Of a DNA stretch of 64,000 nucleotides, positions 13,806 through 50,452 are shown piece by piece. Both the position numbers and the translations under genes were made by a program. Location: contig CP129475.1 of NCBI GenBank assembly GCA_030583785.1, positions 95,559 to 159,558 of the forward strand, given 5' to 3'. The stretch is from Candidatus Dojkabacteria bacterium (GTDB taxonomy: Bacteria > Patescibacteriota > Dojkabacteria > B142 > OLB20). Each line of letters begins with the position of its first letter. Position 1 is the stretch's first letter. The notes under the pieces were generated by a model that saw only the letters and a list, made by a program, of their open reading frames with translations, had not been told where the DNA came from and did no database searches.

Positions 13806-14011
13806 GGCTTGCAAGATTCTTTGGCTTGAGTTAATATTCTCATAAGAGAGTAGCTCTATCGGTGCAAGGCTACAAAAAGAATAGGTGACATAATTAAATA
13901 TCTTATCCGAGTGTCTGTTGGCAAAGCTAACAGGAACAAAGGTGGTACCGCGCTTTTAGCGTCCTTCATATTATATGAATGGCGCTTTTTTTATTTTTTA
14001 GAAGTATCGTT
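13806..14011 (+). promoter_or_regulatory. T-box-like riboswitch leader upstream of aspS
   Basis: The leader contains AGAGAG (13844-13849, Stem I GA motif) and the T-box core AGGTGGTACCGCG (13939-13952). A terminator hairpin GCGTCCTTCATAT/ATATGAATGGCGC with a T7 run follows just before the ATG at 14012. Confidence 0.6.
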
Positions 14012-15799
14012 ATGGAAAGAATCCTTGCTAGTAATCTAAAGGAGAGAATTGGTGAAAAAATAAGTGTCAGAGGATGGCTGCAAAATTCGCGAATAATGGG
14101 TAAGCTTGCCTTTCTGGTTATCAGAGACAGAACTGGCCTTGCTCAGATCGTAATTGAGAATCAAGATACAATTAAAATGATCAGTCCGCTGCAACCTGGC
14201 TCTGTAATATATGTGTCTGGGGTTGTCAGCGAGAACGAAAAGTCTGGATTAGGAGTAGAGATTATTAATCCAGAGATTTCTATTGTCTCAAAAGTTACAG
14301 AATCCATGCCGTTAGAAGTGAATAAGGAGGATTTAAACGCACATATTGATACGATTCTTGACTATCGACCTCTTAGTCTCAGAAACCTAAAAATACAAGC
14401 TGTGTTCAAAATACAGGCAACTCTGGTGAGGGCGTATAGAGAGTATTTAACAAATCTTGGATTTACAGAATTCTTTGGTCCAAATATTATCGGAGCATCT
14501 TCCGAGGGTGGAGCAGAGTTATTTAAGGTTGACTATTTTGGATCAGATGCCATGCTTTCGCAGAGTGCTCAGCTATATAAACAGATAGCCGTAGGCGCTT
14601 ATGAGAGAGTTTTTGCGCTTATGAAATGTTATAGAGCAGAGAAGTCAAACACCAGAAGACACTTAACAGAAGCAACACAATTTGAATTTGAAATGGGTTT
14701 TATTGATGACTTCTCGGAGGTAATGGATATGCTTGAAGGAGTTGTTAAGTCTATGATCAGTGAAATTGCGACCAATAACGATCAAGAGTTAAAGTTGCTT
14801 GGCGTTAGCCTTGCCCTTGCTCCACAAGATATCGCATTCCCAAGGGTAACTTTTAAAGATGCTTTACAGATATTCTTTGAAAGAACGGGAATAGACGAGA
14901 GAGGCGAGATAGATCTTTCACCACAGGCAGAAAAGGAGTTGTGTGCATATGCCCGTGAGCAGTTCGGAACGGATTTTATCTTTGTAACTCATTTTCTCAG
15001 AAAGAAAACGGCCTTCTATGCTAAACCGAATGAAGATAATCCAGAAGTGACAAATTATTTCGATCTGCTCTGCAGGGAAATCGAGATTGTAAGCGGTGGT
15101 CAAAGAATTAACGATCATGATGAACTTGTTGAGTCATTAAAGCTAAAAGGTCTTAACCCAGACAGTTTCCAAGATTACTTGTCCATATTTAAATTCGGTA
15201 TGCCTCCACATGGAGGTTTTGGTATGGGTATGGAAAGATTCACAATGATGGCTCTAGGTCTAGATAATATCCGAATGGCGACTCTGTTCCCTTCAGACAC
15301 AAGAAGAATTGCTAGCGTTAAGAGGCAAGAAAAAATTTATATAGGTGCAGAACTGGGAAGGAATATATTAAAAAGGCTTGATGCCTACAATACTACTTAT
15401 CGTGTGGTTGAACATGAGCCTGTTACTACTTCTGAAGAGGCGGCAAAGGTTAGAGGAACAAGTATTGAAGATGGTATTAAGGCCCTAATATTAAGGAATA
15501 AGAAAAGTGGTGAAAATATAATGGTTTGTATCCCCGCCAACGATAAGGTCGATTTTAATCAATTAGCAGTATTTACCGGTGCTAAATTCGAATTTGAAAG
15601 CAAAGAGGTTATTGCAAGTAAATACGCACTTGAAGCAGGCGGTATCCCACCATTTGGTAATCTGATGGGTTTAAGGGTCATTTTCTCAGATAAGATTAAG
15701 CAACTCGAAACGATTGCTTTTAATAACGGATCGTTGAGCTCTTCGGTCATTATGTCAGCAAAGGATCTGATAGATACGGTAGATCCTGAATTCTTCTAA
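14012..15799 (+). CDS. aspS: aspartyl-tRNA synthetase (archaeal/eukaryotic class IIb type) fused to a C-terminal YbaK/ProX-like aminoacyl-tRNA deacylase domain
   Basis: The synthetase part carries the N-terminal OB anticodon-binding domain, QSAQLYKQ, motif 2 YRAEKSNTRRHLTEATQFEFEM and motif 3 GGFGMGMERF. The C-terminal 150 aa (YRVVEHEPVTTSEEAAK...GGIPPFG...) align to YbaK-type deacylases. I moved the start to the ATG at 14012 because the upstream ATG lies inside the terminator hairpin. Confidence 0.8.
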   Translation: MERILASNLKERIGEKISVRGWLQNSRIMGKLAFLVIRDRTGLAQIVIENQDTIKMISPLQPGSVIYVSGVVSENEKSGLGVEIINPEISIVSKVTESMPLEVNKEDLNAHIDTILDYRPLSLRNLKIQAVFKIQATLVRAYREYLTNLGFTEFFGPNIIGASSEGGAELFKVDYFGSDAMLSQSAQLYKQIAVGAYERVFALMKCYRAEKSNTRRHLTEATQFEFEMGFIDDFSEVMDMLEGVVKSMISEIATNNDQELKLLGVSLALAPQDIAFPRVTFKDALQIFFERTGIDERGEIDLSPQAEKELCAYAREQFGTDFIFVTHFLRKKTAFYAKPNEDNPEVTNYFDLLCREIEIVSGGQRINDHDELVESLKLKGLNPDSFQDYLSIFKFGMPPHGGFGMGMERFTMMALGLDNIRMATLFPSDTRRIASVKRQEKIYIGAELGRNILKRLDAYNTTYRVVEHEPVTTSEEAAKVRGTSIEDGIKALILRNKKSGENIMVCIPANDKVDFNQLAVFTGAKFEFESKEVIASKYALEAGGIPPFGNLMGLRVIFSDKIKQLETIAFNNGSLSSSVIMSAKDLIDTVDPEFF

Positions 15800-15820
15800 T
15801 TCGAACTTCTGGTTAGTTTA

Positions 15821-15848
15821 AGGAGAGCGTAGGCTCTCCTTTTTTTTG
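15821..15848 (+). terminator. rho-independent terminator after aspS
   Basis: AGGAGAGC-gta-GGCTCTCCT hairpin followed by TTTTTTTT. Confidence 0.7.
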
Positions 15849-15896
15849 CATATTTTTGTTGGTTTTTTTTCCTATATACTTGCAGTCGTATCGTAT

Positions 15897-15942
15897 GTGG
15901 GGTATAGTGGTTATAGGTGGTGAGCATAGGTGAAACTTGACA
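15897..15942 (+). promoter_or_regulatory. putative MraZ operator (phased GTGG direct repeats) plus -35 element of the dcw promoter
   Basis: GTGG occurs at 15897, 15907 and 15917, exactly 10 bp apart, with a related GGTG at 15928. Immediately downstream are TTGACA (15937-15942), a 17-nt spacer and TATTTT. The mraZ start is at 16053. Confidence 0.55.
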
Positions 15943-16052
15943 ATTAATGCACTATTAAGTATTTTAACCCTAATGCTCCATCCGAAAGTTTCGGATAATG
16001 CCCCAAAAACTACGAGTAAAACTCAACAATTTTACCTAGTTCACCACCAAAA

Positions 16053-39979: not shown

Positions 39980-42543
39980 ATTATTACATCCCTTTCCAAA
40001 AACACGAAGCCTACCAGAAATTACTTGAAAGAATAAAAAGTATAGATTTTGAACGGATATCCATGCCAATAATCGAGATCAGTGGTATGCCTTTAGCTCT
40101 TCACGATGATTTAATTGGAAATCTGAACAGGGATATAAGACAATCGAATTTCTATGCTGAGAGAGACTCATTAGAGATTCGAAAATACTTTGATTCTATT
40201 CAAAGATTTAATTGTCTAGATACCGAATATTCAGAAATGCTTCAATACTGCATTAATCATAATTTAGAGCATTCAAGAAGAGTGAATCAGCCAGGAGAAT
40301 ATGCTAGGGTTGCTGATATGCTTCAAATCTGGCCTCCAGGGTATGAACATCCTCTTAGAATCAGTTATTTTGATGCAAGTCCTGAATCTGCCTATTTTTT
40401 TGATGAGATTTACGGAAAGCAACTCTCTGCCGTGGATGAATTCTTACTGGGAGACCTCAAATTAATTGAATCTCAAGCTTTGATGTCATCGTTACATATT
40501 GCTTCAGATTATCTAAATGTAGCGAGCAGTCTGCTACTTTTTGGAGGTGATAGTTTAGATAGTTATAATTCAAAAAGCCAAATACAGTTTGACTTCAATT
40601 ATCCTTCTTTGTATTTTCACAGATTTGATTTATTAGAAAAGGATTTAGCCAAGTACCAAAAAGAAGGTTACAAAATACAAATTCTTACAAAACATGCTGA
40701 TCTACTTCCAGAAGGTCTAGGACATTATGTTTCAAATGCAGATAACGAGCTTGATGCCGGTTATATCTCAGAAAGAATTAAGTCTCTAACACTAACCGAC
40801 AGAGAACTATTCGGAACAATCTTTATCAGCAAAAGAACCAAACAAATCTCTAATACACAGGCCAGAAAGCTACTAGCAGAGCTTGAGGGAGAAATTGAGA
40901 TCGGAAATTTTGTTGTGCATGAGGATCATGGAATAGGAGTTTACAAAGGCATCAAGCAAGAGGAATTTAAACAAAGAATACCTCTTGGTTTCAATGAATT
41001 TAAAGTTACAACAATTTACGAAGACTATTTACTAATTGCCTATGCTGAAGGCGATGAACTTTATGTTCCACTGAGTCAAATAGATAAGATAACCAAATAT
41101 ATTGGACCTGATGAGCAGACTCCGAGAGTAACAAGACTAGGTAAAACAGATTGGCATACAATAACTAAGAAGGTAAAAGCATCTTTGATCATTCTTGCCA
41201 GAGAGTTGGTCCAACATTATGCTCTTCGAAGTATAACCAAGACAGAAGCGGTTTCAACTGATGCTAGCAAGGGGTTTATTCAGTTTATGGAGGATTTCCC
41301 ATATCAGGAGACAGATGATCAGAAAAGAACTGAGAAAGAGATATATAAAGATTTAGAAAGCGGCATGCCAATGAATCGACTTTTAGTAGGGGATGTCGGG
41401 TTTGGAAAAACAGAAATGGCGATGAGAGCTGCATATAAGATTGCCGAATCTGGTAAACAGGTAGTCGTTTTGTGTCCAACAACAGTACTTGCAGCTCAAC
41501 ATCAAAAAGTTTTCACTGAAAGGTTCTCTGGAACCGGCTTTAAGATTGCCTCCCTATCAAGGTTCTCGGCTAAGAATTCTCAAGAGATCATTGACAATGT
41601 GGAGCAAGGAAAAATTGACATTCTCGTTGGAACACATCGACTACTTACCGGTAGAGTAAAGTTTAAAAACCTCGGTTTATTAATCATTGATGAAGAGCAA
41701 AAGTTTGGAGTGAAGCAAAAAGAGAAGCTTAAGCAGATGCAAATTGGAGTTCATGTTCTTTCGATGAGTGCTACGCCAATTCCTAGAACATTAAGCATGG
41801 CCTTATCCAGCATTCAAGACATTTCGCTTATCCAAACTCCACCAGAAGGACGAAAGGGAGTTAATACATTTGTTGCTAAGCTTGATTATCAAAAGATATC
41901 TGAGGCAATCAATAACGAAGTCAACAGAGGAGGACAAGTCTACTATCTTTACAATCGAGTTCGCACGATTAATTCTATTTTTGCTAAACTTTCAAAATTA
42001 ATGCCCAAGGTTCGATTTGCAATAGCGCATGGGCAGATGACAAGCACTTCGTTAGAGAAAACTATTAATGATTTCTATAATTACAGGTACGATGTACTTA
42101 TCTGTACTACAATCATTGAAAACGGGATTGATATGCAAAATGTTAATACAATAATCATTGAGCAAGCTCAAAATTTTGGACTCGGTCAGCTCTATCAGCT
42201 TAGAGGTCGTGTAGGAAGAGGAGATAAACAAGCATATGCGTATTTGTTTTACGAAGGAGAGGATATAAACAAGAAAGATAAGGTAGAAGATGAAGAAATC
42301 CTTGGAGAGAAATTACTAAAGCAAAAACGCCAACATCAAAAATATAAAGAGCGGTTGAAATCTATTGTTGATTTTCAAAATCTAGGCTCAGGTTTTAACT
42401 TAGCCAGCAGAGATCTAGAGATTCGGGGAGCTGGTAACCTCCTTGGTAAAGAGCAGCATGGAAATATTTCTCAGATTGGTTATGGTCTTTACATGCAACT
42501 GCTTGCTCAAGAAATAGAAAAGTTGAAGAATAATGAAGTATAA
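39976..42543 (+). CDS. mfd: transcription-repair coupling factor Mfd (N-terminally divergent/short)
   Basis: RNAP-interacting domain GNFVVHEDHGIGVYKG, SF2 helicase motifs (GDVGFGKTEMAMRAA, DEEQKFG, SATPIPRTL), the TRG motif region and QLRGRVGRG. The first 300 aa or so do not resemble the UvrB-homology module. GTG start overlapping the mutS stop. Confidence 0.8.
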   Translation: MNYYIPFQKHEAYQKLLERIKSIDFERISMPIIEISGMPLALHDDLIGNLNRDIRQSNFYAERDSLEIRKYFDSIQRFNCLDTEYSEMLQYCINHNLEHSRRVNQPGEYARVADMLQIWPPGYEHPLRISYFDASPESAYFFDEIYGKQLSAVDEFLLGDLKLIESQALMSSLHIASDYLNVASSLLLFGGDSLDSYNSKSQIQFDFNYPSLYFHRFDLLEKDLAKYQKEGYKIQILTKHADLLPEGLGHYVSNADNELDAGYISERIKSLTLTDRELFGTIFISKRTKQISNTQARKLLAELEGEIEIGNFVVHEDHGIGVYKGIKQEEFKQRIPLGFNEFKVTTIYEDYLLIAYAEGDELYVPLSQIDKITKYIGPDEQTPRVTRLGKTDWHTITKKVKASLIILARELVQHYALRSITKTEAVSTDASKGFIQFMEDFPYQETDDQKRTEKEIYKDLESGMPMNRLLVGDVGFGKTEMAMRAAYKIAESGKQVVVLCPTTVLAAQHQKVFTERFSGTGFKIASLSRFSAKNSQEIIDNVEQGKIDILVGTHRLLTGRVKFKNLGLLIIDEEQKFGVKQKEKLKQMQIGVHVLSMSATPIPRTLSMALSSIQDISLIQTPPEGRKGVNTFVAKLDYQKISEAINNEVNRGGQVYYLYNRVRTINSIFAKLSKLMPKVRFAIAHGQMTSTSLEKTINDFYNYRYDVLICTTIIENGIDMQNVNTIIIEQAQNFGLGQLYQLRGRVGRGDKQAYAYLFYEGEDINKKDKVEDEEILGEKLLKQKRQHQKYKERLKSIVDFQNLGSGFNLASRDLEIRGAGNLLGKEQHGNISQIGYGLYMQLLAQEIEKLKNNEV

Positions 42544-43223
42544 TGAATCGCATGAATAGTTATATTAACTGGAACGAAGTTCAGATTGATCCTACAAGTG
42601 ACGCAGAGATTAATGCGTTATATGATCAAGGATATGTTTTTGTGCGTATTGGAAAAAACATACTTCAGCAAACTAGATCGGTTAGGATTAAACTTGCCGA
42701 TTTCACTTTAAGTAGCGAAAACAGAAGAGTCTTAAGAAAAGTTGAAAACCTATCATTAGAACTAATTAAGCTACCAATATCACCCGATAATTACGACTGG
42801 CATATTCATAAACTGGGAAAAGACTTCTATAATAATAAATTCGGTCCGGGTATATTTACAGCCTCGAGAATTAAAACGATACTAACCACCCAAGAACTTA
42901 ATTTTAACTTTCTTCTGAAATACTCGATAATAGATCAAAACTGTGGTTATGCAATTGCTTACTCTAATAGTAGTATCATGCACTACGCCTATCCATTTTA
43001 TGATTTTGAGACATATCCAAGTAACTTAGGTATGGCGATGATGATTCAGGCAATACTACATGCTCAAAACGAAGGACGAGAGTATATCTATCTAGGCTCT
43101 GTAAGAAAAGCTTCAGATATCTACAAGCTTCAGTTCAAGGGAGTAGAGTATTATCAAAAAGATCAATGGAGTAACGACATTGCTGCACTCAAGCAAGAAG
43201 TGTTTGAAACCCCGAGTATCTAG
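42543..43223 (+). CDS. Ate1/Bpt-family aminoacyl-tRNA--protein transferase-like protein
   Basis: FTLSSENRRVLRK resembles the ATE_N SRSQRRxLRR segment. YAIAYSNSSIMHYAYPFYDFE...SNLGMAMMIQAILHAQNEGREYIYLGSV resembles ATE_C (AVY.FYDP..SLG...I..A...G..Y.YLGY). The N-terminal Cys cluster is absent. Confidence 0.45.
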   Translation: MNRMNSYINWNEVQIDPTSDAEINALYDQGYVFVRIGKNILQQTRSVRIKLADFTLSSENRRVLRKVENLSLELIKLPISPDNYDWHIHKLGKDFYNNKFGPGIFTASRIKTILTTQELNFNFLLKYSIIDQNCGYAIAYSNSSIMHYAYPFYDFETYPSNLGMAMMIQAILHAQNEGREYIYLGSVRKASDIYKLQFKGVEYYQKDQWSNDIAALKQEVFETPSI

Positions 43224-43660: not shown

Positions 43661-46600
43661 TTATTTGTTATGTCTACCGCCAAATCCTGTCACTGGAGCA
43701 CCCAAATCACTAATACCATATCCTACAGGGTCAACAATGATTCCGTTCAATTCGTCATCTAAGTCAAGGCTACTGCCATCAGTAATACTGTATGTAACAA
43801 CATTAACAGGTTGACCATCTATTGTAGCTTGGCTAAAAGTTGCTTCAGATATTGTGGTAAAGCTATTATTATTTGTATTGTGCTTTCTCAGAACAAAATC
43901 GCTTCCAAGTTCCCCATAATGGTAAATCTTAATCTCCGCTGTGAATCCTGGAGTTCCACAGTCAATCGTAAAGTTCAAGAGCCCTGCTGGGTAGCTATAA
44001 CCGGAGTCACTTACTGATAATGAAGCTTCAGCTTGTGCAGTAACTGAGCTGATAGTGCATGTATTAGGTGCTTCCAACACACTATAAGCTGAAGACACTT
44101 CATTATAGAAGGAAGAAACATGTTCCTGTTCAGAATCTGGAGTGCCGTCATTATTTGCATCGCCACTATTTGGACCGTCGTTCTCAACTTGATCTAAAAT
44201 GCCATCGTTATCTGAATCTTGTGGTATTGCCCAAATAAAGAATGGATAACTATCGTTATATGCAGCATTTATTGCCCAGATATCTTCAAAGTCCCAACTA
44301 TTTGCGCCAAGTTCTGTCGTAAAGGTGGCTAGAGCTTTCATTTCTGTAGTGTTTTTTGCAACAGCATCACTTTCACAGTCAGTGTTGCCGCAGGCATCGG
44401 TTACATCTGCTGTTTGAATATCCCAGAAAGAGAACTCAATAACCTCATCTTCGTAACCACCAAAATATCCAGCGAAACCACCGAAGTCACTATCTCCGGT
44501 AACATTTCCAGTAGCGTATGATCGGGATACTGTTCCATCATCATCATTAAAACCGACTAAACCTCTGGCATGACTGTAAGAAGAGTCTTCGGCATATACA
44601 TTACCAGTTGCAAACGAGAGATCTACTAGTTTTTCGTTATAACCAACAAGACCTCCAACTATTTCTTCTCCGTAAACATCTGCTGACGATGAAGAATTCA
44701 ACACTGTACTACTATTATTACTGAAACTGCCTTGAATGAATCTTGTATTCCATTCTCGTAAATATGAAACATTAACTGGTGTGAATGGATATGTTTCAGG
44801 TGAGGTATAAGGATACTTTGACATACCTTTGAATGGCAATGGTTCAACAGTTTGTCCGTACGAACCGCTTTTCGCATGTTTATAAATTATCCAATTATAG
44901 AATATAAAACTTCGTTCTTTTCCATCTTCTACTGGGTTATACTCAAACTCCATATCAATTACATCTCCGTGGTGCATGATCACAAATTGATCGTTTGTAC
45001 TTGAAAGAAGTTGGGCTACATCTCCATATTTTGTAAACCATCCGAATTGAGGCGCGTATGGCTCAAGGGGTTGGTCAGACACATTGTTGTAATTATGATC
45101 CCAGTAGTATTCTCTGTTAACTTCAGAATAGCCACGGAAGCCAAGATTTGCAGTTTCTGGATGCAGTTCAGTCATCTCATAGGTTACAGGTGCAGAAGTA
45201 TCTACTGCAAAGTAATTAATTCTAGTTCGATCGTAACCTATGCGAACTTCGTAATTATCGCTCACAAATTTACCCGTAAGATCTATGGCTTGCAATCGCG
45301 GGGAACCTCCAAGCGAGGATATTTGAGATGAAGTATAGGCGTTAACCCATTCTCCAACAGAATTTTTAACTTGAACTAGTCTTAAGCTATCTGCATCTAG
45401 TGTGTAATCTATTGCACCTCTGAGGATCAACATTATTCTCGAAGCACCAGACAAGTCACCGAAATCTAGGTCCCAATAGTTAATGTTACTGTCATGTTTA
45501 TAGCTCCATTTATCATCATCACTTGCGAGATCATCTAAACAGTTATTTCCATATTTGTCTGTACAGGCTTGTAATGGATGAGATGGATTATCGGCAATAG
45601 AGATGAAGTTACCCTCGTTGTTTCTGATAGGTGTGGTTACGATGTTGTAACCCGGCTCATGATCGAAAGTTATAAGTTTAGCCTCATCGTAAAATGGAAT
45701 CTCGTTATATTCCTGTGCCATTTTTAGAGAATATTTCCCATCCTTTGGTTGAAGTTTAGATGAGTCAACTTGAACATAATCATCTCCTACAACATTTCTA
45801 GGCATTCCTCTGCCGACATCATGCATATATGTATAATCGCTTCCGTCCCATGTGTATAGAAGTACACTTGATGAGCCTGTACCTAGTGGTTCTGCGTGTT
45901 CTCCAACTAGTCCTCCAATATTATAATATCCTCTAATTTCTCCTGAAGAATGGACATTGTTCATTGTGCCACCAAGATATCCAACTGCGGCACCAACAGA
46001 ATCGTCTCCAACGATATTTACATTATCCAAAGTGAAATTTTGTAATTCTCCACCGTCTCCTAATACGCCGAACAATCCAATATAATCTGCACCGGGTCTA
46101 TTTATGGTGAGGTCCGAAATTGTATAGCCGTTTCCAAAAAACTTACCAAAAAATTGATCACTATTATTTCCGATAGGCTCAAAACCTGCACCAGCATTCC
46201 ACTCAAATGTTTCTGAACAATCGATGTCATTCAAAAGATAGACATTATCTTCGAGGTGTCCGTCTGAGATCGCTTGTAATTCTTCGCAGTCAGTTACATT
46301 GTATGTAGCAGGTGTATTCTTTACAGCAATTATTGTATAAGAGCCTCCTATGGTTACAGGGTCGCCATTATCATCATCTGCTGCATAGATCGCTAGATAT
46401 TTACCCTCTGCAGGATTCGGGATTGTATAGCTACCGTTTGTGACCAAAGTCCCCAAGTCCCATTCGCCTGGATCATCTGTAGGTAGGTCCGGAGTAGAAC
46501 AGTCATAGATTGAACAATCAGATACGAATATCTTGTAATGATCCCAATTCATATCCGTTACCGAGTCTGTTTCGTAAAGTTTCAGTGAAAGTGTATTCCC

Positions 46601-47296
46601 TGTATATATTTGCAAGTTAGACTGGGTTCCGCCAGGTGTGTTTAAAATACTTGTTCCAGATAATTCAACATCAATTTTGTTATAAGGATTTGATGAGCCG
46701 GCAAACAAAAGATATTGTCCATCACATGAAGTCCAGATAGCTTCGATTGGATTAGAATCAGCATAAGTGTCTGTATAACATAGTGACCAGCCATCTAAAT
46801 CATCAAAATCCACATTAAGTTGAGGACCTGAAGGATAGTAAGCAGGCAGAGTATTTGCATGATAAATATAGCGAGAGTGATCGGTGCTGTAATTTAAACC
46901 GTCCTCTTCGCCAAGCCTATATCCGCTATCAAGATACAAATCAGAACCAAATGTATATACATGCCAAGATAATCTGTATTCAGGATTGGTATTATTTACA
47001 TCTGCTGAATATAGTAAAACTGTGTCCCCAGCTTGAGCAAAACCAATCGATCCATAAGTTGTTTTATAGTACCATTCAGATCCGTTATGGTTTTTTGTAT
47101 TGTTATCTGTAGTTGTCTGCAAAATTACACTTCTTTCTCCTGCAGCTAGAAGCTTGATAACATTTTCGGGTTCAGGTGGTGGTGCAGCCTCTGCGACTTC
47201 TGGTGTAACAAAACTGAAAGGTATCTGTGCGAGTAGGAGACTTGTTGTTACTAATATGGATAAATAAAAATTAACTCTCTTGAAGAGAATCTTCAT
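43661..47296 (-). CDS. giant secreted surface protein (1211 aa) with GLUG-motif repeats and TSP3-like Ca-binding repeats
   Basis: Signal peptide MKILFKRVNFYLSILVTTSLLLAQ...AEAA. Two blocks of G-L-x-G repeats (IGLFGVLGDG, IGGLVGEH, VGGLVGYN, ARGLVGFND, FGGFAGYFGG). C-terminal DSDNDGILDQVENDGPNSGDANNDGTPD aspartate-rich repeats. Confidence 0.65.
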   Translation of the reverse strand: MKILFKRVNFYLSILVTTSLLLAQIPFSFVTPEVAEAAPPPEPENVIKLLAAGERSVILQTTTDNNTKNHNGSEWYYKTTYGSIGFAQAGDTVLLYSADVNNTNPEYRLSWHVYTFGSDLYLDSGYRLGEEDGLNYSTDHSRYIYHANTLPAYYPSGPQLNVDFDDLDGWSLCYTDTYADSNPIEAIWTSCDGQYLLFAGSSNPYNKIDVELSGTSILNTPGGTQSNLQIYTGNTLSLKLYETDSVTDMNWDHYKIFVSDCSIYDCSTPDLPTDDPGEWDLGTLVTNGSYTIPNPAEGKYLAIYAADDDNGDPVTIGGSYTIIAVKNTPATYNVTDCEELQAISDGHLEDNVYLLNDIDCSETFEWNAGAGFEPIGNNSDQFFGKFFGNGYTISDLTINRPGADYIGLFGVLGDGGELQNFTLDNVNIVGDDSVGAAVGYLGGTMNNVHSSGEIRGYYNIGGLVGEHAEPLGTGSSSVLLYTWDGSDYTYMHDVGRGMPRNVVGDDYVQVDSSKLQPKDGKYSLKMAQEYNEIPFYDEAKLITFDHEPGYNIVTTPIRNNEGNFISIADNPSHPLQACTDKYGNNCLDDLASDDDKWSYKHDSNINYWDLDFGDLSGASRIMLILRGAIDYTLDADSLRLVQVKNSVGEWVNAYTSSQISSLGGSPRLQAIDLTGKFVSDNYEVRIGYDRTRINYFAVDTSAPVTYEMTELHPETANLGFRGYSEVNREYYWDHNYNNVSDQPLEPYAPQFGWFTKYGDVAQLLSSTNDQFVIMHHGDVIDMEFEYNPVEDGKERSFIFYNWIIYKHAKSGSYGQTVEPLPFKGMSKYPYTSPETYPFTPVNVSYLREWNTRFIQGSFSNNSSTVLNSSSSADVYGEEIVGGLVGYNEKLVDLSFATGNVYAEDSSYSHARGLVGFNDDDGTVSRSYATGNVTGDSDFGGFAGYFGGYEDEVIEFSFWDIQTADVTDACGNTDCESDAVAKNTTEMKALATFTTELGANSWDFEDIWAINAAYNDSYPFFIWAIPQDSDNDGILDQVENDGPNSGDANNDGTPDSEQEHVSSFYNEVSSAYSVLEAPNTCTISSVTAQAEASLSVSDSGYSYPAGLLNFTIDCGTPGFTAEIKIYHYGELGSDFVLRKHNTNNNSFTTISEATFSQATIDGQPVNVVTYSITDGSSLDLDDELNGIIVDPVGYGISDLGAPVTGFGGRHNK

Positions 47297-47387: not shown

Positions 47388-48956
47388 TTAAATTATTGAT
47401 CTGAGTCTATTAATATATTTCTCTTTATCTTTTGCCACGGCATCTTTTAATAGCCAGCCTGCTTTTGGTCCGTGGTTTTTTCCGATTAATGAAATGTATA
47501 TTGCTGCAAATGCTTCTTTTGTCTGTATGCCTGTTGATTTTGCGAGTTCAAAAATGGCTTGTTGAAGCTCTTCGCCTTCAGCAAAGTCTTTCGTGCTTAA
47601 CATATCTGCTAGTAGACCTAAGAATCCAAGCTGGCTTTCAGAAAGTTCATTTACTTGAGTTGGCGTTTCTTCTGCTAAGTTAAACTTTTCGGTATCAGCA
47701 GCAAATCTCTCTAACCATAATTTTGCATAAACAACTCTTTCGTCTAATAATTCTATTTCTAGTGCACTTAAGCTAGATCCTTTTTCATTTGAGAAATGAT
47801 CCCGCAAGTTGACTGATGGCATTTGCACAAGTGTAGCAACTGTCCTAAATCTTGGTAAAAAAGTAGGTTCAATTTTGTCTTTGTTTATTTGTGCTGCTTG
47901 AAAATATCTGCCTTGATCAGTTTCGGTTCCTGTTTCAAAGAAAGCTTTGGCACAGCGGTCATATTCATCAAACAAATCCGGAATTGTGTTACTGATATTT
48001 GGGTCAAAGTTAATTGCTCGCTGATAAGGTGTTCTAACATGTAAGAATCGACCAATCTGAGGTGGAAGGATTTTTACAAACTCTGCAGCAGATGTGGCAT
48101 TACCTTTTGACGAAGACATTTTTGCTCCACCGATCAAAAGAAACTCGTGTAAAAATCCGAAAGGAGGATCAGTTTTAAATACATCTTTAATTACTTCGGC
48201 GGCAATGTATCTTGATCCGCCCTTGCTGAAATGGTCTTTGCCGGCGCCTTCGATTGAAATATTCATAGCTGCCCAATGTGCAGGCCAGTCTACTTTCCAC
48301 ATCAACTTACCTGTTCCGCCAAAAGGAGAAATTCTTCCTTTATGCCCACAGCCCTTTGTCCATTCAACTAAGTTTTCTTCGCAGCTGTATGTAACAAGTT
48401 CACCGTCCCAATCTGTGACAAGGCTTGTTCCTACCTTCCCGCACTGAGGACATATAACTTGGAACGGATACCAGCCTTCTGGTTTCGTTTGTCCTGCAAC
48501 TTTCTTGTAAATATTTCTTATTACTTCGACCTCATCGAGTGCCATGCGAATATATTTATCTATTTGTCCTTGTTTATAAAGATCAGAAGATTTGTGTATC
48601 TCTGGTTTAAACCCAAGTGTGTTAAAAGCAGAAATATATTCGTTCGCATAAAACATAGCAAAATTTTCTGCTTTACCATCAGGGGAAGGAATTGAGTTAA
48701 GAGGTTTTCCCATGTGCTGCTCGTACACAGTCTTATCTAGGTATACCGGAAGACCGTCCATAGGATCCATATCATTGATCACATATGTAAAATCAACATT
48801 ATAACCGGCATCTTTTAATGCTTCGTAGATCAGACCATGTGTAGCAATAGCTCTAAGCGATCCGGCATGTGCATGTCCGGATGGGGTTTTCATATCATCG
48901 ACTCGGTAATTATTTGATTTGTCGAAGTTCTCTAACAGTTTGTCAGCCCAGTACAT
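47388..48956 (-). CDS. lysK: class I lysyl-tRNA synthetase (archaeal type)
   Basis: HIGH-like TPSGHAHAGSLR and KMSKS variant KMSSSKG. Zn/Cys region (CPQCGKVGT...CGHKG). 522 aa. The architecture matches class I LysRS rather than class II. Confidence 0.8.
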   Translation of the reverse strand: MYWADKLLENFDKSNNYRVDDMKTPSGHAHAGSLRAIATHGLIYEALKDAGYNVDFTYVINDMDPMDGLPVYLDKTVYEQHMGKPLNSIPSPDGKAENFAMFYANEYISAFNTLGFKPEIHKSSDLYKQGQIDKYIRMALDEVEVIRNIYKKVAGQTKPEGWYPFQVICPQCGKVGTSLVTDWDGELVTYSCEENLVEWTKGCGHKGRISPFGGTGKLMWKVDWPAHWAAMNISIEGAGKDHFSKGGSRYIAAEVIKDVFKTDPPFGFLHEFLLIGGAKMSSSKGNATSAAEFVKILPPQIGRFLHVRTPYQRAINFDPNISNTIPDLFDEYDRCAKAFFETGTETDQGRYFQAAQINKDKIEPTFLPRFRTVATLVQMPSVNLRDHFSNEKGSSLSALEIELLDERVVYAKLWLERFAADTEKFNLAEETPTQVNELSESQLGFLGLLADMLSTKDFAEGEELQQAIFELAKSTGIQTKEAFAAIYISLIGKNHGPKAGWLLKDAVAKDKEKYINRLRSII

Positions 48957-49000: not shown

Positions 49001-50452
49001 TCAGAAATGCAGGTTGCTTATATCCGAACTGCCATATTGTAAGGCTTTATTCCATCCAGAAATTACCTCTGATCTTGAACAATTTACAAACACCAAATCG
49101 TATCCTTCTGGACTTGTGGCGTTCGGAAGCGGAATTATCCCTTTTCCTGTTCTTTTATCAAAAAGTATCCCATCATTATTAAGTGATGTTAATAATTTGG
49201 AAATATCTGCGTGTTTATACTTACCAAGATAGCCTACATTTGTGATGCTACTTACTTCGAATCCTGACCTCATTAACCAAGATGCGACAGATAATGTAAA
49301 TGCTGCAGCAGAAATTCTAAAGTTACCGTCATAGATCAAAAGTGGAATAATTTCGTCGTCAATAATTTCGTTCATACCATCAAAAAAAACACTACCTGCG
49401 TATCCTTGGTCTGCAAAGATCCTGCCAAGGTTAACTAACCGATCTCTTCCAATTTGATCAAGAATTTCAGCTTCTTCCGAAACATCAAGATGACTCCCAA
49501 CATAATATTGATCAGAGTAAAGTTGTGATGTTAGTGCAATAATACCAACTTCTCCTGATGGAATGATACTAAGACCAACTCCAAAGCTCTTTACGACATC
49601 TTCGGATTTGGGGGTTTCTACAAACCTTTGAATTAGTACAGGAATGTTTTCTTCCTCTCTGTTTGGATTTTGAAGCTTCTCTGCATTTTGTTGCCTCAGT
49701 TCAAGTAATGATTCTAGGTAGGATTCCTCTGTCAAAATCACATTCACTTCACTTCCGGCATCAACTGCTGATTTTATGACCACTTTTCTCCAATCAACAT
49801 TGTATTGTGTGCAAAATTCTTCCCATGAATCTGGAAGATCGTTTATCCTTGCTAGTCGTGTCTCAACATGTCTAGGAATTACTGCTATATGATTCTGCAC
49901 ACTTTCGTAGTAGACATCTTTTCTATTTAGTCTTCTTGTAAGTTCAGCAGATTGAGTAGTGAGATCAGGATCAATACTTAGTCTGGGATATGCCTGTTTT
50001 AACAGATGCAGGTTTTCTGCCATGTATACGGGAAGTTGATTGTTAGCTAGAGGAAACAAGGAATTAAGAATTCTTAATTGCTGATACGGTGTGTATAGCC
50101 TTTTTGTTTCATTTAGACATAACATGCCATTGCCATCCGTCACGGCATAAATCGGTCTTATCTCAGGTATCTCTAATCCCAGAAATGAAGCAAGCTCAGT
50201 TACGCGACGATTAGTATCTGAAATTCTGAGTTGAAGTTCGTAAATTTCTTCGACAGAACCTTCGTTAAGGATTGGTCTTAAGCCAATCATGCTTTGTGGT
50301 AATGCATTGCCTGTTGCATAATTTCGATTAAAACGCATATCATCGTTGCCACTTTCTAGATACAACCCGGAGTTGATATCGACCACCAAAGGTTTTACAC
50401 GCTCTCTGTATGCTGTTCCGGGAACTCTTTGTTGAAGTAAATCAGGATTCAT
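49001..50452 (-). CDS. hypothetical protein with ATP-grasp-like C-terminal half
   Basis: VVIKSAVDAGSEV, PVLIQRFVE and GSVFFDGMNEIIDDEIIPLLIYDGNFRISAAA resemble the ATP-grasp K-loop, hinge and Mg/ATP-binding E.N region. The N-terminal 200 aa or so are unassigned. Confidence 0.4.
   Translation of the reverse strand: MNPDLLQQRVPGTAYRERVKPLVVDINSGLYLESGNDDMRFNRNYATGNALPQSMIGLRPILNEGSVEEIYELQLRISDTNRRVTELASFLGLEIPEIRPIYAVTDGNGMLCLNETKRLYTPYQQLRILNSLFPLANNQLPVYMAENLHLLKQAYPRLSIDPDLTTQSAELTRRLNRKDVYYESVQNHIAVIPRHVETRLARINDLPDSWEEFCTQYNVDWRKVVIKSAVDAGSEVNVILTEESYLESLLELRQQNAEKLQNPNREEENIPVLIQRFVETPKSEDVVKSFGVGLSIIPSGEVGIIALTSQLYSDQYYVGSHLDVSEEAEILDQIGRDRLVNLGRIFADQGYAGSVFFDGMNEIIDDEIIPLLIYDGNFRISAAAFTLSVASWLMRSGFEVSSITNVGYLGKYKHADISKLLTSLNNDGILFDKRTGKGIIPLPNATSPEGYDLVFVNCSRSEVISGWNKALQYGSSDISNLHF

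Follow-up and report, generated by a model that had tools for sequence, protein, structure and literature searches.

Editing domains are known on the Ile-, Leu-, Val-, Thr-, Ala-, Phe- and Pro-tRNA synthetases. Aspartyl-tRNA synthetase (AspRS), which like lysyl-tRNA synthetase (LysRS) belongs to class IIb, is to our knowledge regarded as accurate enough without an editing domain. Among the aminoacyl-tRNA deacylases that form the INS superfamily, members other than INS, the domain inserted in prolyl-tRNA synthetase (ProRS), are single-domain proteins, and the only fusions named in a review of the superfamily are ProXp-ala-ProRS and a plant C-terminal domain (PMC11295145). ProRS INS and ProXp-ala-ProRS carry out post-transfer editing of the errors of their own synthetase (PMC11286415, PMC11295145), and YeaK, which is the same as ProXp-ST1 (PMC7603204), edits Ser/Thr-tRNAs from several synthetases including LysRS (PMC7373986, PMC11295145). 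The conserved lysine and the GXXXP loop of the superfamily have assigned roles (PMC10164551, PMC11286415), and hydrolysis is proposed to depend mainly on the positioning of the substrate by these two elements (PMC11286415, PMC10164551). The gene considered here lies in a 64,000-nucleotide stretch, referred to as the window, of a Candidatus Dojkabacteria bacterium (assembly GCA_030583785.1, contig CP129475.1, positions 95,559 to 159,558 of the forward strand), and in it an archaeal-type AspRS is continued at its C-terminus by a YeaK/ProXp-ST1-like deacylase domain. The full-text literature and reviews that were searched describe no AspRS-INS fusion, with an earlier mention possible. The component families are known, as is the presence of an editing domain on a class II synthetase; new to the reachable literature are the partner, the topology and the clade.

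The whole fused gene is one unbroken open reading frame (ORF) at 14012-15799 on the + strand, as are all of its features given below, and encodes 595 aa followed by a stop codon. A 595-aa protein in the database, P0001, is 100% identical to it, belongs to a 1,172,464-bp contig and bears the NCBI name 'MAG: aspartate--tRNA(Asn) ligase [Candidatus Dojkabacteria bacterium]'. The frame is open from 13979 to 15799, and the start at 14012, the second ATG (MERILAS...), is backed by homologues and by P0001. An in-frame ATG 33 nt further upstream, at 13979, would add 11 residues (MALFLFFRSIV) and is without homologue support. Three Pfam domains are found in the protein, each above its gathering cut-off: tRNA_anti-codon, tRNA-synt_2 and tRNA_edit. 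The first corresponds to an OB-fold anticodon-binding domain at residues 17-91 (14060..14284; PF01336, E = 1e-14) and the second to the class IIb catalytic core at residues 113-429 (14348..15298; PF00152, E = 5e-79); the Pfam scan of the protein gave no match to PF02938, the GAD insertion. The motifs quoted in the original prediction were located by residue check where they had been claimed: QSAQLYKQ at residues 184-191 (14561-14584), motif 2 YRAEKSNTRRHLTE at residues 207-220 (14630-14671) and motif 3 GGFGMGMERF at residues 401-410 (15212-15241).

On sequence grounds, the synthetase part is a class IIb AspRS of the archaeal/AspRS2 type. Among NCBIfam models it passes NF003483, aspartate--tRNA(Asn) ligase (498.8 bits against a cut-off of 353), and TIGR00458 (403.2 bits against 368.4), and falls below every cut-off of the asparaginyl-tRNA synthetase (AsnRS), bacterial AspRS and LysRS models. 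The term 'aspartate--tRNA(Asn) ligase' is a family label and not proof of specificity. The best solved relative of the synthetase body is the AspRS2 of Thermus thermophilus (1n9w/3kfu; E = 1e-107), with an alignment that reaches AspRS2 residue 420 of 422, equivalent to residue 433 of the window protein. Because the AspRS2 alignment stops there, the sequence past residue 433 is an appended extension. It is introduced by a flexible linker of about 15 residues (430-445; 15299..15346), recognized from the AspRS2 alignment and from the AlphaFold2 (AF2) full-length model, in which the predicted local distance difference test score (pLDDT) drops below 50 at residues 432-439 and residues 424-445 have no regular secondary structure. 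The model was built on 42 homologues and has a mean pLDDT of 88, being confident inside each domain.

Residues 446-595 (15347..15796) make up an INS-superfamily (YeaK/ProXp-ST1-like) aminoacyl-tRNA deacylase domain, as recognized by PF04073, AF2, Foldseek and a subfamily hidden Markov model (HMM). The match to PF04073 (tRNA_edit) covers residues 468-588 (15413-15775) and profile positions 1-122 of 123 (E = 4e-21), with 75.8 bits for the full protein and 79.7 bits for the domain alone against a cut-off of 25.5. A profile search of the C-terminal region, suggested as a check in the original prediction, likewise led to PF04073 (E = 2.5e-22 for the C-terminal 152 aa alone). Modelled by itself, the same segment takes up an INS/YbaK-type fold with a pLDDT of 96, and the full-length AF2 model places a helix at 446-458 ahead of an alpha/beta domain at 463-590. 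Foldseek against the PDB returned 37 matches at E <= 1e-3, and all 37 are INS-superfamily structures (template modelling score, TM, 0.62-0.85), including lpg1207/3OP6, YbaK, ProX, ProXp-ala, ProXp-x, the ProRS INS domain and SadB-type N-domains; the probability is 1.0 for 3op6, 1dbu, 2dxa, 1vki, 2cx5 and the ProRS INS domain. Pfam, NCBIfam, AF2 and Foldseek thus bear out the claim that a complete deacylase domain from the YbaK/ProX (INS) superfamily is joined to an archaeal-type class IIb AspRS.

The conserved residues of the superfamily are in place. The strictly conserved lysine is K490 (15479..15481), which is aligned to K46 of YbaK and corresponds to K279 of E. coli ProRS and K45 of ProXp-ala; it is invariant in 42 fused sequences and likewise in a set of 26 fused and 119 free-standing domains. 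The GXXXP loop is G543-G-I-P-P547 (15638..15652), part of the family motif GG[VI]PPFG and aligned to GGISP of YbaK, and G543 and P547 are invariant. Both elements had been named beforehand as checks on the deacylase. Two further signatures, taken from a conservation table and, for the first, also from alignments, mark the subfamily. One is H468...T473-S474...R481 ('HEPVTTSEEAAKVRGT'; 15413..15454), which recurs in free-standing YeaK-like proteins and is lacking in YbaK and INS. The other is F570-N571-x-G573...S578 ('AFNNGSLSSS'; 15716..15745), which is invariant or nearly so in fused and free-standing members; E. coli YeaK has AFNAG...KS, and YbaK is without it.

The active site was compared between 26 domains from long proteins (those checked are fused to AspRS) and 119 free-standing domains. 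At all conserved positions (H468, T473, S474, R481, K490, G543, P546-P547-F548-G549, D559, F570-N571-x-G573, S578 and D585) the same residue is found at similar frequency in the two groups, the D559 position being Ser in the window protein. No marker of a substrate change separates the 26 fused from the 119 free-standing domains at any conserved position, and nothing in the active-site signature suggests degeneration or a change of substrate upon fusion. E. coli YeaK matches these positions except at T473-S474, where it has K-C, and at G549, where it has Ser. A mapping of the E. coli INS pocket residues T257, I263 and L266 onto H468, S474 and A477, counted ungapped from the lysine, is not relied on; the HMM aligns only from residue 272.

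Placement within the superfamily, whose published similarity network also contains ProXp-ST2 and the uncharacterised ProXp-8 and ProXp-9 clusters, was judged against YeaK, YbaK, ProRS INS and the solved ProXp-ala and ProXp-x proteins; the E. coli ProRS, YbaK and YeaK sequences were those of the annotated K-12 genome. By these comparisons the appended domain belongs to the YeaK/ProXp-ST1 clade, not to YbaK or ProXp-ala. On the subfamily profile YeaK scores 121 bits (E = 6e-39, full length), YbaK 65 and ProRS INS 16, and in pairwise comparison the window domain and YeaK share 28% identity over their full length (E = 5e-20). A neighbour-joining (NJ) tree of 149 domains nests YeaK among the family representatives and leaves YbaK on a long peripheral branch. 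YbaK proper is rejected by profile and tree and also by its own models, with 47.8-51.9 bits on TIGR00011 (cut-off 153.25) and 18.6-22.3 on NF007951 (cut-off 243). ProXp-ala is rejected as well: profile and tree speak against it, and the solved ProXp-ala and ProXp-x chains are reached by phmmer only at E >= 0.002. The only close solved relative by sequence is the uncharacterised lpg1207 (3OP6; phmmer E = 2e-14). An exhaustive search with the domain alone among 1.84 billion representatives gave 1,285 relatives, 256 of them at E <= 1e-10, mostly free-standing proteins of 150-165 aa. Two of the relatives, P0185 (448 aa) and P0246 (491 aa), have three tandem PF04073 editing domains.

The original designation of the domain as YbaK/ProX-type is therefore correct for the superfamily and incorrect for the family. 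The accompanying remark, by which editing of mischarged tRNAPro is the normal task of the fold, does not hold for this clade, of which the characterised member edits Ser/Thr on several tRNAs (PMC7373986, PMC11295145) and is annotated in E. coli K-12 as 'mischarged aminoacyl-tRNA deacylase'. By homology, the fused domain would be a Ser/Thr-tRNA deacylase. It departs from the free-standing, single-domain form of the YeaK clade in being covalently fused to AspRS, and from the ProRS arrangement, an insertion between motifs 2 and 3, in that it follows motif 3 and a linker, on AspRS.

The fusion recurs widely. When one genome per GTDB species was scanned with patterns from the C-terminal domain, at least 600 stretches were obtained, at least 568 of which were confirmed; for the best 80 loci the reading frame was extended and compared with reference AspRS sequences. 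At 75 of these 80 an archaeal-type AspRS is in frame with the domain (64 full length, 9 cut by contig ends and 2 apparently interrupted), one (L011, from a Dojkabacteria genome) has the domain on a bacterial-type AspRS without GAD, and four have it free-standing. At two chlamydial loci, L015 and L062, the frame of the domain has just 243 and 511 aa and includes only part of AspRS, which may reflect a frameshift, an assembly error or a split gene. Among the best 120 database homologues, 119 have the same three-domain Pfam architecture (50-65% identity, about 595-646 aa). According to record titles, the carriers include Dojkabacteria, other Patescibacteria ('Saccharibacteria'), many Chlamydiota (Parachlamydiaceae, Rhabdochlamydiaceae and others), Bdellovibrionota, Legionellaceae and other Gammaproteobacteria, and Verrucomicrobiota. 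The fusion had been called unusual; this holds for the literature searched and not for genomes, since related genomes, which the original prediction had proposed to survey, and more distant ones together place it in dozens of species, at least five phylum-level groups and three AspRS backbones. Among the best 80 loci the AspRS part of the window protein is 51-57% identical to chlamydial, Legionella-like and Bdellovibrionota versions and just 39-44% identical to some Patescibacteria versions. Because the window AspRS is nearer to the former than to some of the latter, the fused gene appears to have spread horizontally among bacteria that are host-associated or episymbiotic.

The partner of the domain is consistently AspRS, on three different scaffolds. 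The first is an archaeal-type AspRS with the C-terminal domain (the window protein, P0122, P0125 and P0131), the second a bacterial-type AspRS with GAD (P0146, 748 aa, and P0189, 744 aa; NF001750 706-815 bits) and the third a bacterial-type AspRS without GAD (P0128, P0147 and L011). In the 20 proteins of the representative search that were scanned, no domain of this clade is joined to a synthetase other than AspRS. In the NJ tree the fused domains are split over at least two places, with P0189/P0216/P0264 apart from the main clade, which suggests more than one fusion or a transfer of the domain, an NJ tree of a 150-residue domain being weak evidence.

The neighbourhood of the free-standing copies leads in part to the same partner: of the four among the best 80 loci, two (L016 and L055) adjoin aspS. 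On L016, from a complete 1.19-Mb Patescibacteria chromosome, the order is an unfused archaeal-type AspRS, a gene of the histone-deacetylase family and the deacylase, in an apparent operon; the stop of the middle gene (L016:3048-3983; PF00850, E = 4e-32) overlaps the start of the deacylase. On L055 the free-standing deacylase is convergent with a GAD-less bacterial AspRS. On L069 it stands between RecJ and a D-Ala-D-Ala carboxypeptidase, and contig L086, which bears the fused AspRS P0146, has a carboxypeptidase immediately downstream and RecJ about 9 kb upstream. No aspS is found near the free-standing relatives P0123 and P0126 on their short contigs. Fusion and gene neighbourhood in combination classically signal a functional association, and the link between the domain and AspRS is probably a functional one.

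We favour, at somewhat better than an even chance, the reading that the domain is a tethered proofreader that acts after transfer on the products of its own AspRS, mischarged tRNAAsp/tRNAAsn, with Ser or Thr as the preferred wrong residues by homology. A proofreading role had also been put forward in the original prediction and, as judged from sequence, appears the most reasonable one. The OB domain and catalytic core would bind tRNAAsp, and possibly tRNAAsn. The aminoacylated CCA end would then enter the deacylase pocket, either by swinging across on the 15-residue tether or by release and recapture. In a study of a protein that joins ProXp-ala to ProRS, the authors expect a class II synthetase to let go of its product quickly and editing to proceed predominantly in trans (PMC11286415). 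There K490 would position the A76 phosphate and the backbone of the G543-P547 loop would stabilise the ester carbonyl, so that a wrong aminoacyl group is hydrolysed and correct Asp-tRNAAsp is spared. Going by YeaK homology, small hydroxylated residues such as Ser or Thr would be the groups preferentially removed. That the domain hydrolyses, that it acts on tRNAAsp/tRNAAsn and which amino acid it rejects are predictions. The 75 of 80 loci count in favour of this proofreading, as an indication of purifying selection on the fusion and of its spread.

Several points weigh against it. AspRS is not known to us to need editing, and we know of no misactivation of Ser or Thr by AspRS. At T473-S474, found in 90% of the family, YeaK has K-C, and the specificity of YeaK may not transfer. 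The relative placement of the AspRS and deacylase domains in the AF2 model is unreliable (predicted TM score, pTM, 0.68; disordered linker). Broad tRNA specificity is reported for ProXp-ST1 (PMC11295145), and tethering need not imply that tRNAAsp or tRNAAsn is the substrate.

The main rival to Ser/Thr editing is hydrolysis of Asp-tRNAAsn made by a non-discriminating AspRS, a form of proofreading at the tRNA level that we consider possible, at well below an even chance. The non-discriminating enzyme would coexist with an AsnRS route, or an excess of the intermediate would be cleared when amidotransferase is limiting. The synthetase body is consistent with this, since it belongs to the AspRS2/non-discriminating family (NF003483) and has the transamidosome AspRS2 as its best PDB match. 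In an alignment with 1b8a and 1n9w, moreover, Q24 and G79 of the window protein replace W26 and K85 of the discriminating AspRS of T. kodakarensis, two residues with a role in that enzyme reportedly described by Feng et al. in 2003. These replacements are compatible with non-discrimination and no proof of it. A conceptual precedent is the GluRS2 of H. pylori, which hydrolyses excess Glu-tRNAGln (PMC3241645).

The window covers about 5% of the 1.17-Mb genome, and a motif search of its 64 kb and of the 80 loci gave no GatA, GatB or AsnRS; the lack of a GatA/GatB signature in this search fits Asp-tRNAAsn hydrolysis. On the P0128 contig the fused aspS is followed, 1.2 kb downstream, by a genuine AsnRS (489 bits on NF003037 against a cut-off of 414). 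On L016 an AsnRS 74% identical to this one lies 1.3 kb past the deacylase, and on L088, from a Dojkabacteria relative with a fused AspRS 62% identical to that of the window, an AsnRS follows 430 nt downstream on the same strand. Overall, aspS (fused or with a separate deacylase) and asnS lie on the same strand, 0.5-3 kb apart, on three independent contigs from Patescibacteria/Dojkabacteria (L016:1700-7053, L087:6894-11343 and L088:8949-12529), a genuine AsnRS at such a distance being a point for Asp-tRNAAsn hydrolysis; in the window it is mraZ that stands downstream of aspS instead.

A database search with one of these AsnRS sequences shows that many Dojkabacteria encode AsnRS. Five pairs of AsnRS and fused AspRS, which speak for the same reading, were matched by equal size of the longest contig: P0280 with P0064 (862,240 bp), P0323 with P0058 (584,792 bp), P0346 with P0072 (43,531 bp), P0375 with P0065 (48,056 bp) and P0313 with P0027 (13,623 bp), only the last being seen directly, with both genes on L088. 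The contig of the window is not among the 120 AsnRS matches listed, all of which are at least 67% identical to the query; an AsnRS in the genome of the window is likely all the same. The original assumption, a reliance of the organism on a non-discriminating AspRS and an amidotransferase, is thus unsupported, in that Dojkabacteria relatives with this fusion also have an AsnRS and the window and the 80 loci showed no GatCAB.

Some Dojkabacteria AsnRS proteins (L089:6637-8523, which is P0381, as well as P0349 and P0378) themselves have an INS-superfamily domain at the N-terminus, at residues ~4-155. These proteins score 477-490 bits on NF003037, above the cut-off, and their extra domain is more YbaK-like (66-95 bits on TIGR00011, 48-67 on the YeaK-like profile) and lacks H468, VRGT and FNxG. 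By these sequence features it is a second, independent fusion of an editing domain to an Asx synthetase in the same phylum. If Asp-tRNAAsn were the target, the clusters of aspS, with its deacylase, and asnS would form a single Asx-fidelity system together with the INS-fused AsnRS of Dojkabacteria.

Against Asp-tRNAAsn as the target stands the active-site signature, which is that of the free-standing relatives including E. coli YeaK, with Ser and Thr as known substrates, in an organism that faces no Asp-tRNAAsn problem. The domain also occurs on bacterial-type AspRS. Most carriers are Chlamydiota, and an Asp-tRNAAsn hydrolase would be counterproductive where this intermediate is obligatory, as it is in C. 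trachomatis (Raczniak 2001, cited in PMC11580382). In the searchable literature, no Asp-tRNAAsn deacylase is described. With tentative confidence at most, such hydrolysis may let a non-discriminating AspRS act as a discriminating one beside AsnRS, without GatCAB, and would reflect a real need for AspRS proofreading in many host-associated or episymbiotic bacteria.

It is unlikely that AspRS merely carries a general trans-editing factor for the Ser/Thr (or other) errors of other synthetases, the fusion serving just co-expression, stability or proximity to tRNA in small genomes. Fused and free-standing domains are indeed indistinguishable at conserved positions, and many carriers are symbionts or epibionts with reduced genomes, as this explanation would have it. 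The partner, however, is always AspRS, on three backbones, and aspS lies beside two of the four free-standing copies; because such a repeated and exclusive partnership is hard to explain without a tie specific to AspRS, the idea of a carried factor is disfavoured.

Still less probable, and in our view very doubtful, is a non-catalytic module that binds the acceptor end of tRNA or docks a partner, for instance GatCAB in a transamidosome or EF-Tu, without hydrolysis. Appended tRNA-binding or pathway domains do occur elsewhere, as in the GlnRS-YqeY of D. radiodurans (PMC1865053) and the AspRS-GatC family NF009460, and the closest solved AspRS belongs to the Thermus transamidosome (3kfu). Yet in its lysine, its GXXXP loop and all other signature positions the domain matches free-standing relatives that are presumably enzymes, and the positioning mechanism leads us to expect that a site still able to bind aminoacyl-A76 would also hydrolyse. 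The AsnRS genes of related organisms speak against an obligatory transamidosome. Co-option as a tRNA-binding module, which had been offered as an alternative at the outset, is accordingly disfavoured by an active-site signature that is the same as in free-standing members. Finally, a merger of two adjacent genes through frameshift, sequencing error or misassembly, which the original prediction had named as grounds for refutation, is improbable to the point of being ruled out by the identical protein with the same neighbours on Logan contig L001 (run SRR24881069), the same architecture in more than 100 homologues, the 75 of 80 in-frame loci and a linker region that is continuous in the alignment of 42 fused sequences.

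An editing domain with an intact site on three AspRS scaffolds in several phyla implies a recurrent and hitherto undescribed fidelity problem at tRNAAsp/tRNAAsn. Should the target be Ser/Thr, the known reach of Ser/Thr mischarging would extend to AspRS; should it be Asp-tRNAAsn, the fusion would represent a new way for a non-discriminating synthetase to coexist with direct AsnRS. The fused protein offers a ready experimental system for AspRS errors and for recognition by the YeaK-like clade, which is largely uncharacterised. Automated annotation, in which fused proteins are now named only 'aspartate--tRNA(Asn) ligase', is corrected as well.

In the window, a low-GC stretch (about 37% G+C), the fused gene has rlmH upstream and mraZ downstream. 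At 18 loci from Chlamydiota, Verrucomicrobiota and unassigned genomes (e.g. L026:554-2662 and L027:541-2664) a same-strand gene of ~700 aa lies directly 5' of the fused aspS and reads by eye as polynucleotide phosphorylase. Neither rlmH and mraZ nor this upstream gene in Chlamydiota gives information on the function of the fused gene. The 2-kb bin that holds the fused gene (14001-16000) has the top GC skew of the window, 0.18 against <=0.13 elsewhere. Other genes of the window include those for HisRS, class I LysRS, MnmA, RlmH, MutS, Mfd, NrdR and type IV pili, and an mraZ-rsmH-ftsL-PBP-mur cluster. The LysRS at 47388-48956 (-) is assigned to class I by PF01921 (E = 1e-85). Directly 3' of mfd, a 226-aa ORF at 42543-43223 (+) has a weak match, below the cut-off, to PF04377, the C-terminus of arginine-tRNA-protein transferase (E = 8e-4), and may be an aminoacyl-tRNA-dependent transferase. 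The ORFs at 43661-47296 (-; 1211 aa) and 49001-50452 (-; 483 aa) have no Pfam match at E <= 1e-3.

Among described systems, E. coli YeaK is similar in fold and clade, and has H, RGT, GAKAL, G-x-I-P-P-F, AFN-x-G, KS and D at the conserved positions. It differs in being a single-domain protein that acts in trans, whereas the window domain is covalently attached to AspRS, and in the K-C pair that takes the place of T-S at 473-474 of the window protein and 90% of the family. Of the solved structures, lpg1207 of L. pneumophila (3OP6) is the best match (Foldseek E = 9.5e-14, TM 0.77, 31% identity), but it is free-standing, uncharacterised and without the VRGT signature.

As architectures, ProRS INS and the ProXp-ala-ProRS of trypanosomatids and Plasmodium also place an INS deacylase with the conserved lysine and GXXXP on a class II synthetase (PMC11286415, PMC11295145). 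Here, in contrast, the partner is AspRS, and the domain is C-terminal on a flexible linker rather than inserted between motifs 2 and 3 or, as in ProXp-ala-ProRS, placed N-terminally; it is also of another subfamily than ProRS INS, as the mere 16 bits of the E. coli INS domain on the subfamily profile indicate. The AspRS2 of T. thermophilus (1N9W; 3KFU) has the same OB domain and class IIb core without GAD and aligns end to end with the synthetase body, but it ends where the linker of the window protein starts and has no editing domain. It also works with GatCAB, whereas relatives of the window organism encode AsnRS and the window and the 80 loci showed no GatCAB. AspRS-GatC (NF009460, on which the window protein scores 89 bits against a cut-off of 1379) and the GlnRS-YqeY of D. 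radiodurans similarly have a further domain at the C-terminus of an Asx/Glx-group synthetase; the domains added there serve the transamidation pathway or tRNA binding, whereas that of the window protein has a hydrolytic editing fold.

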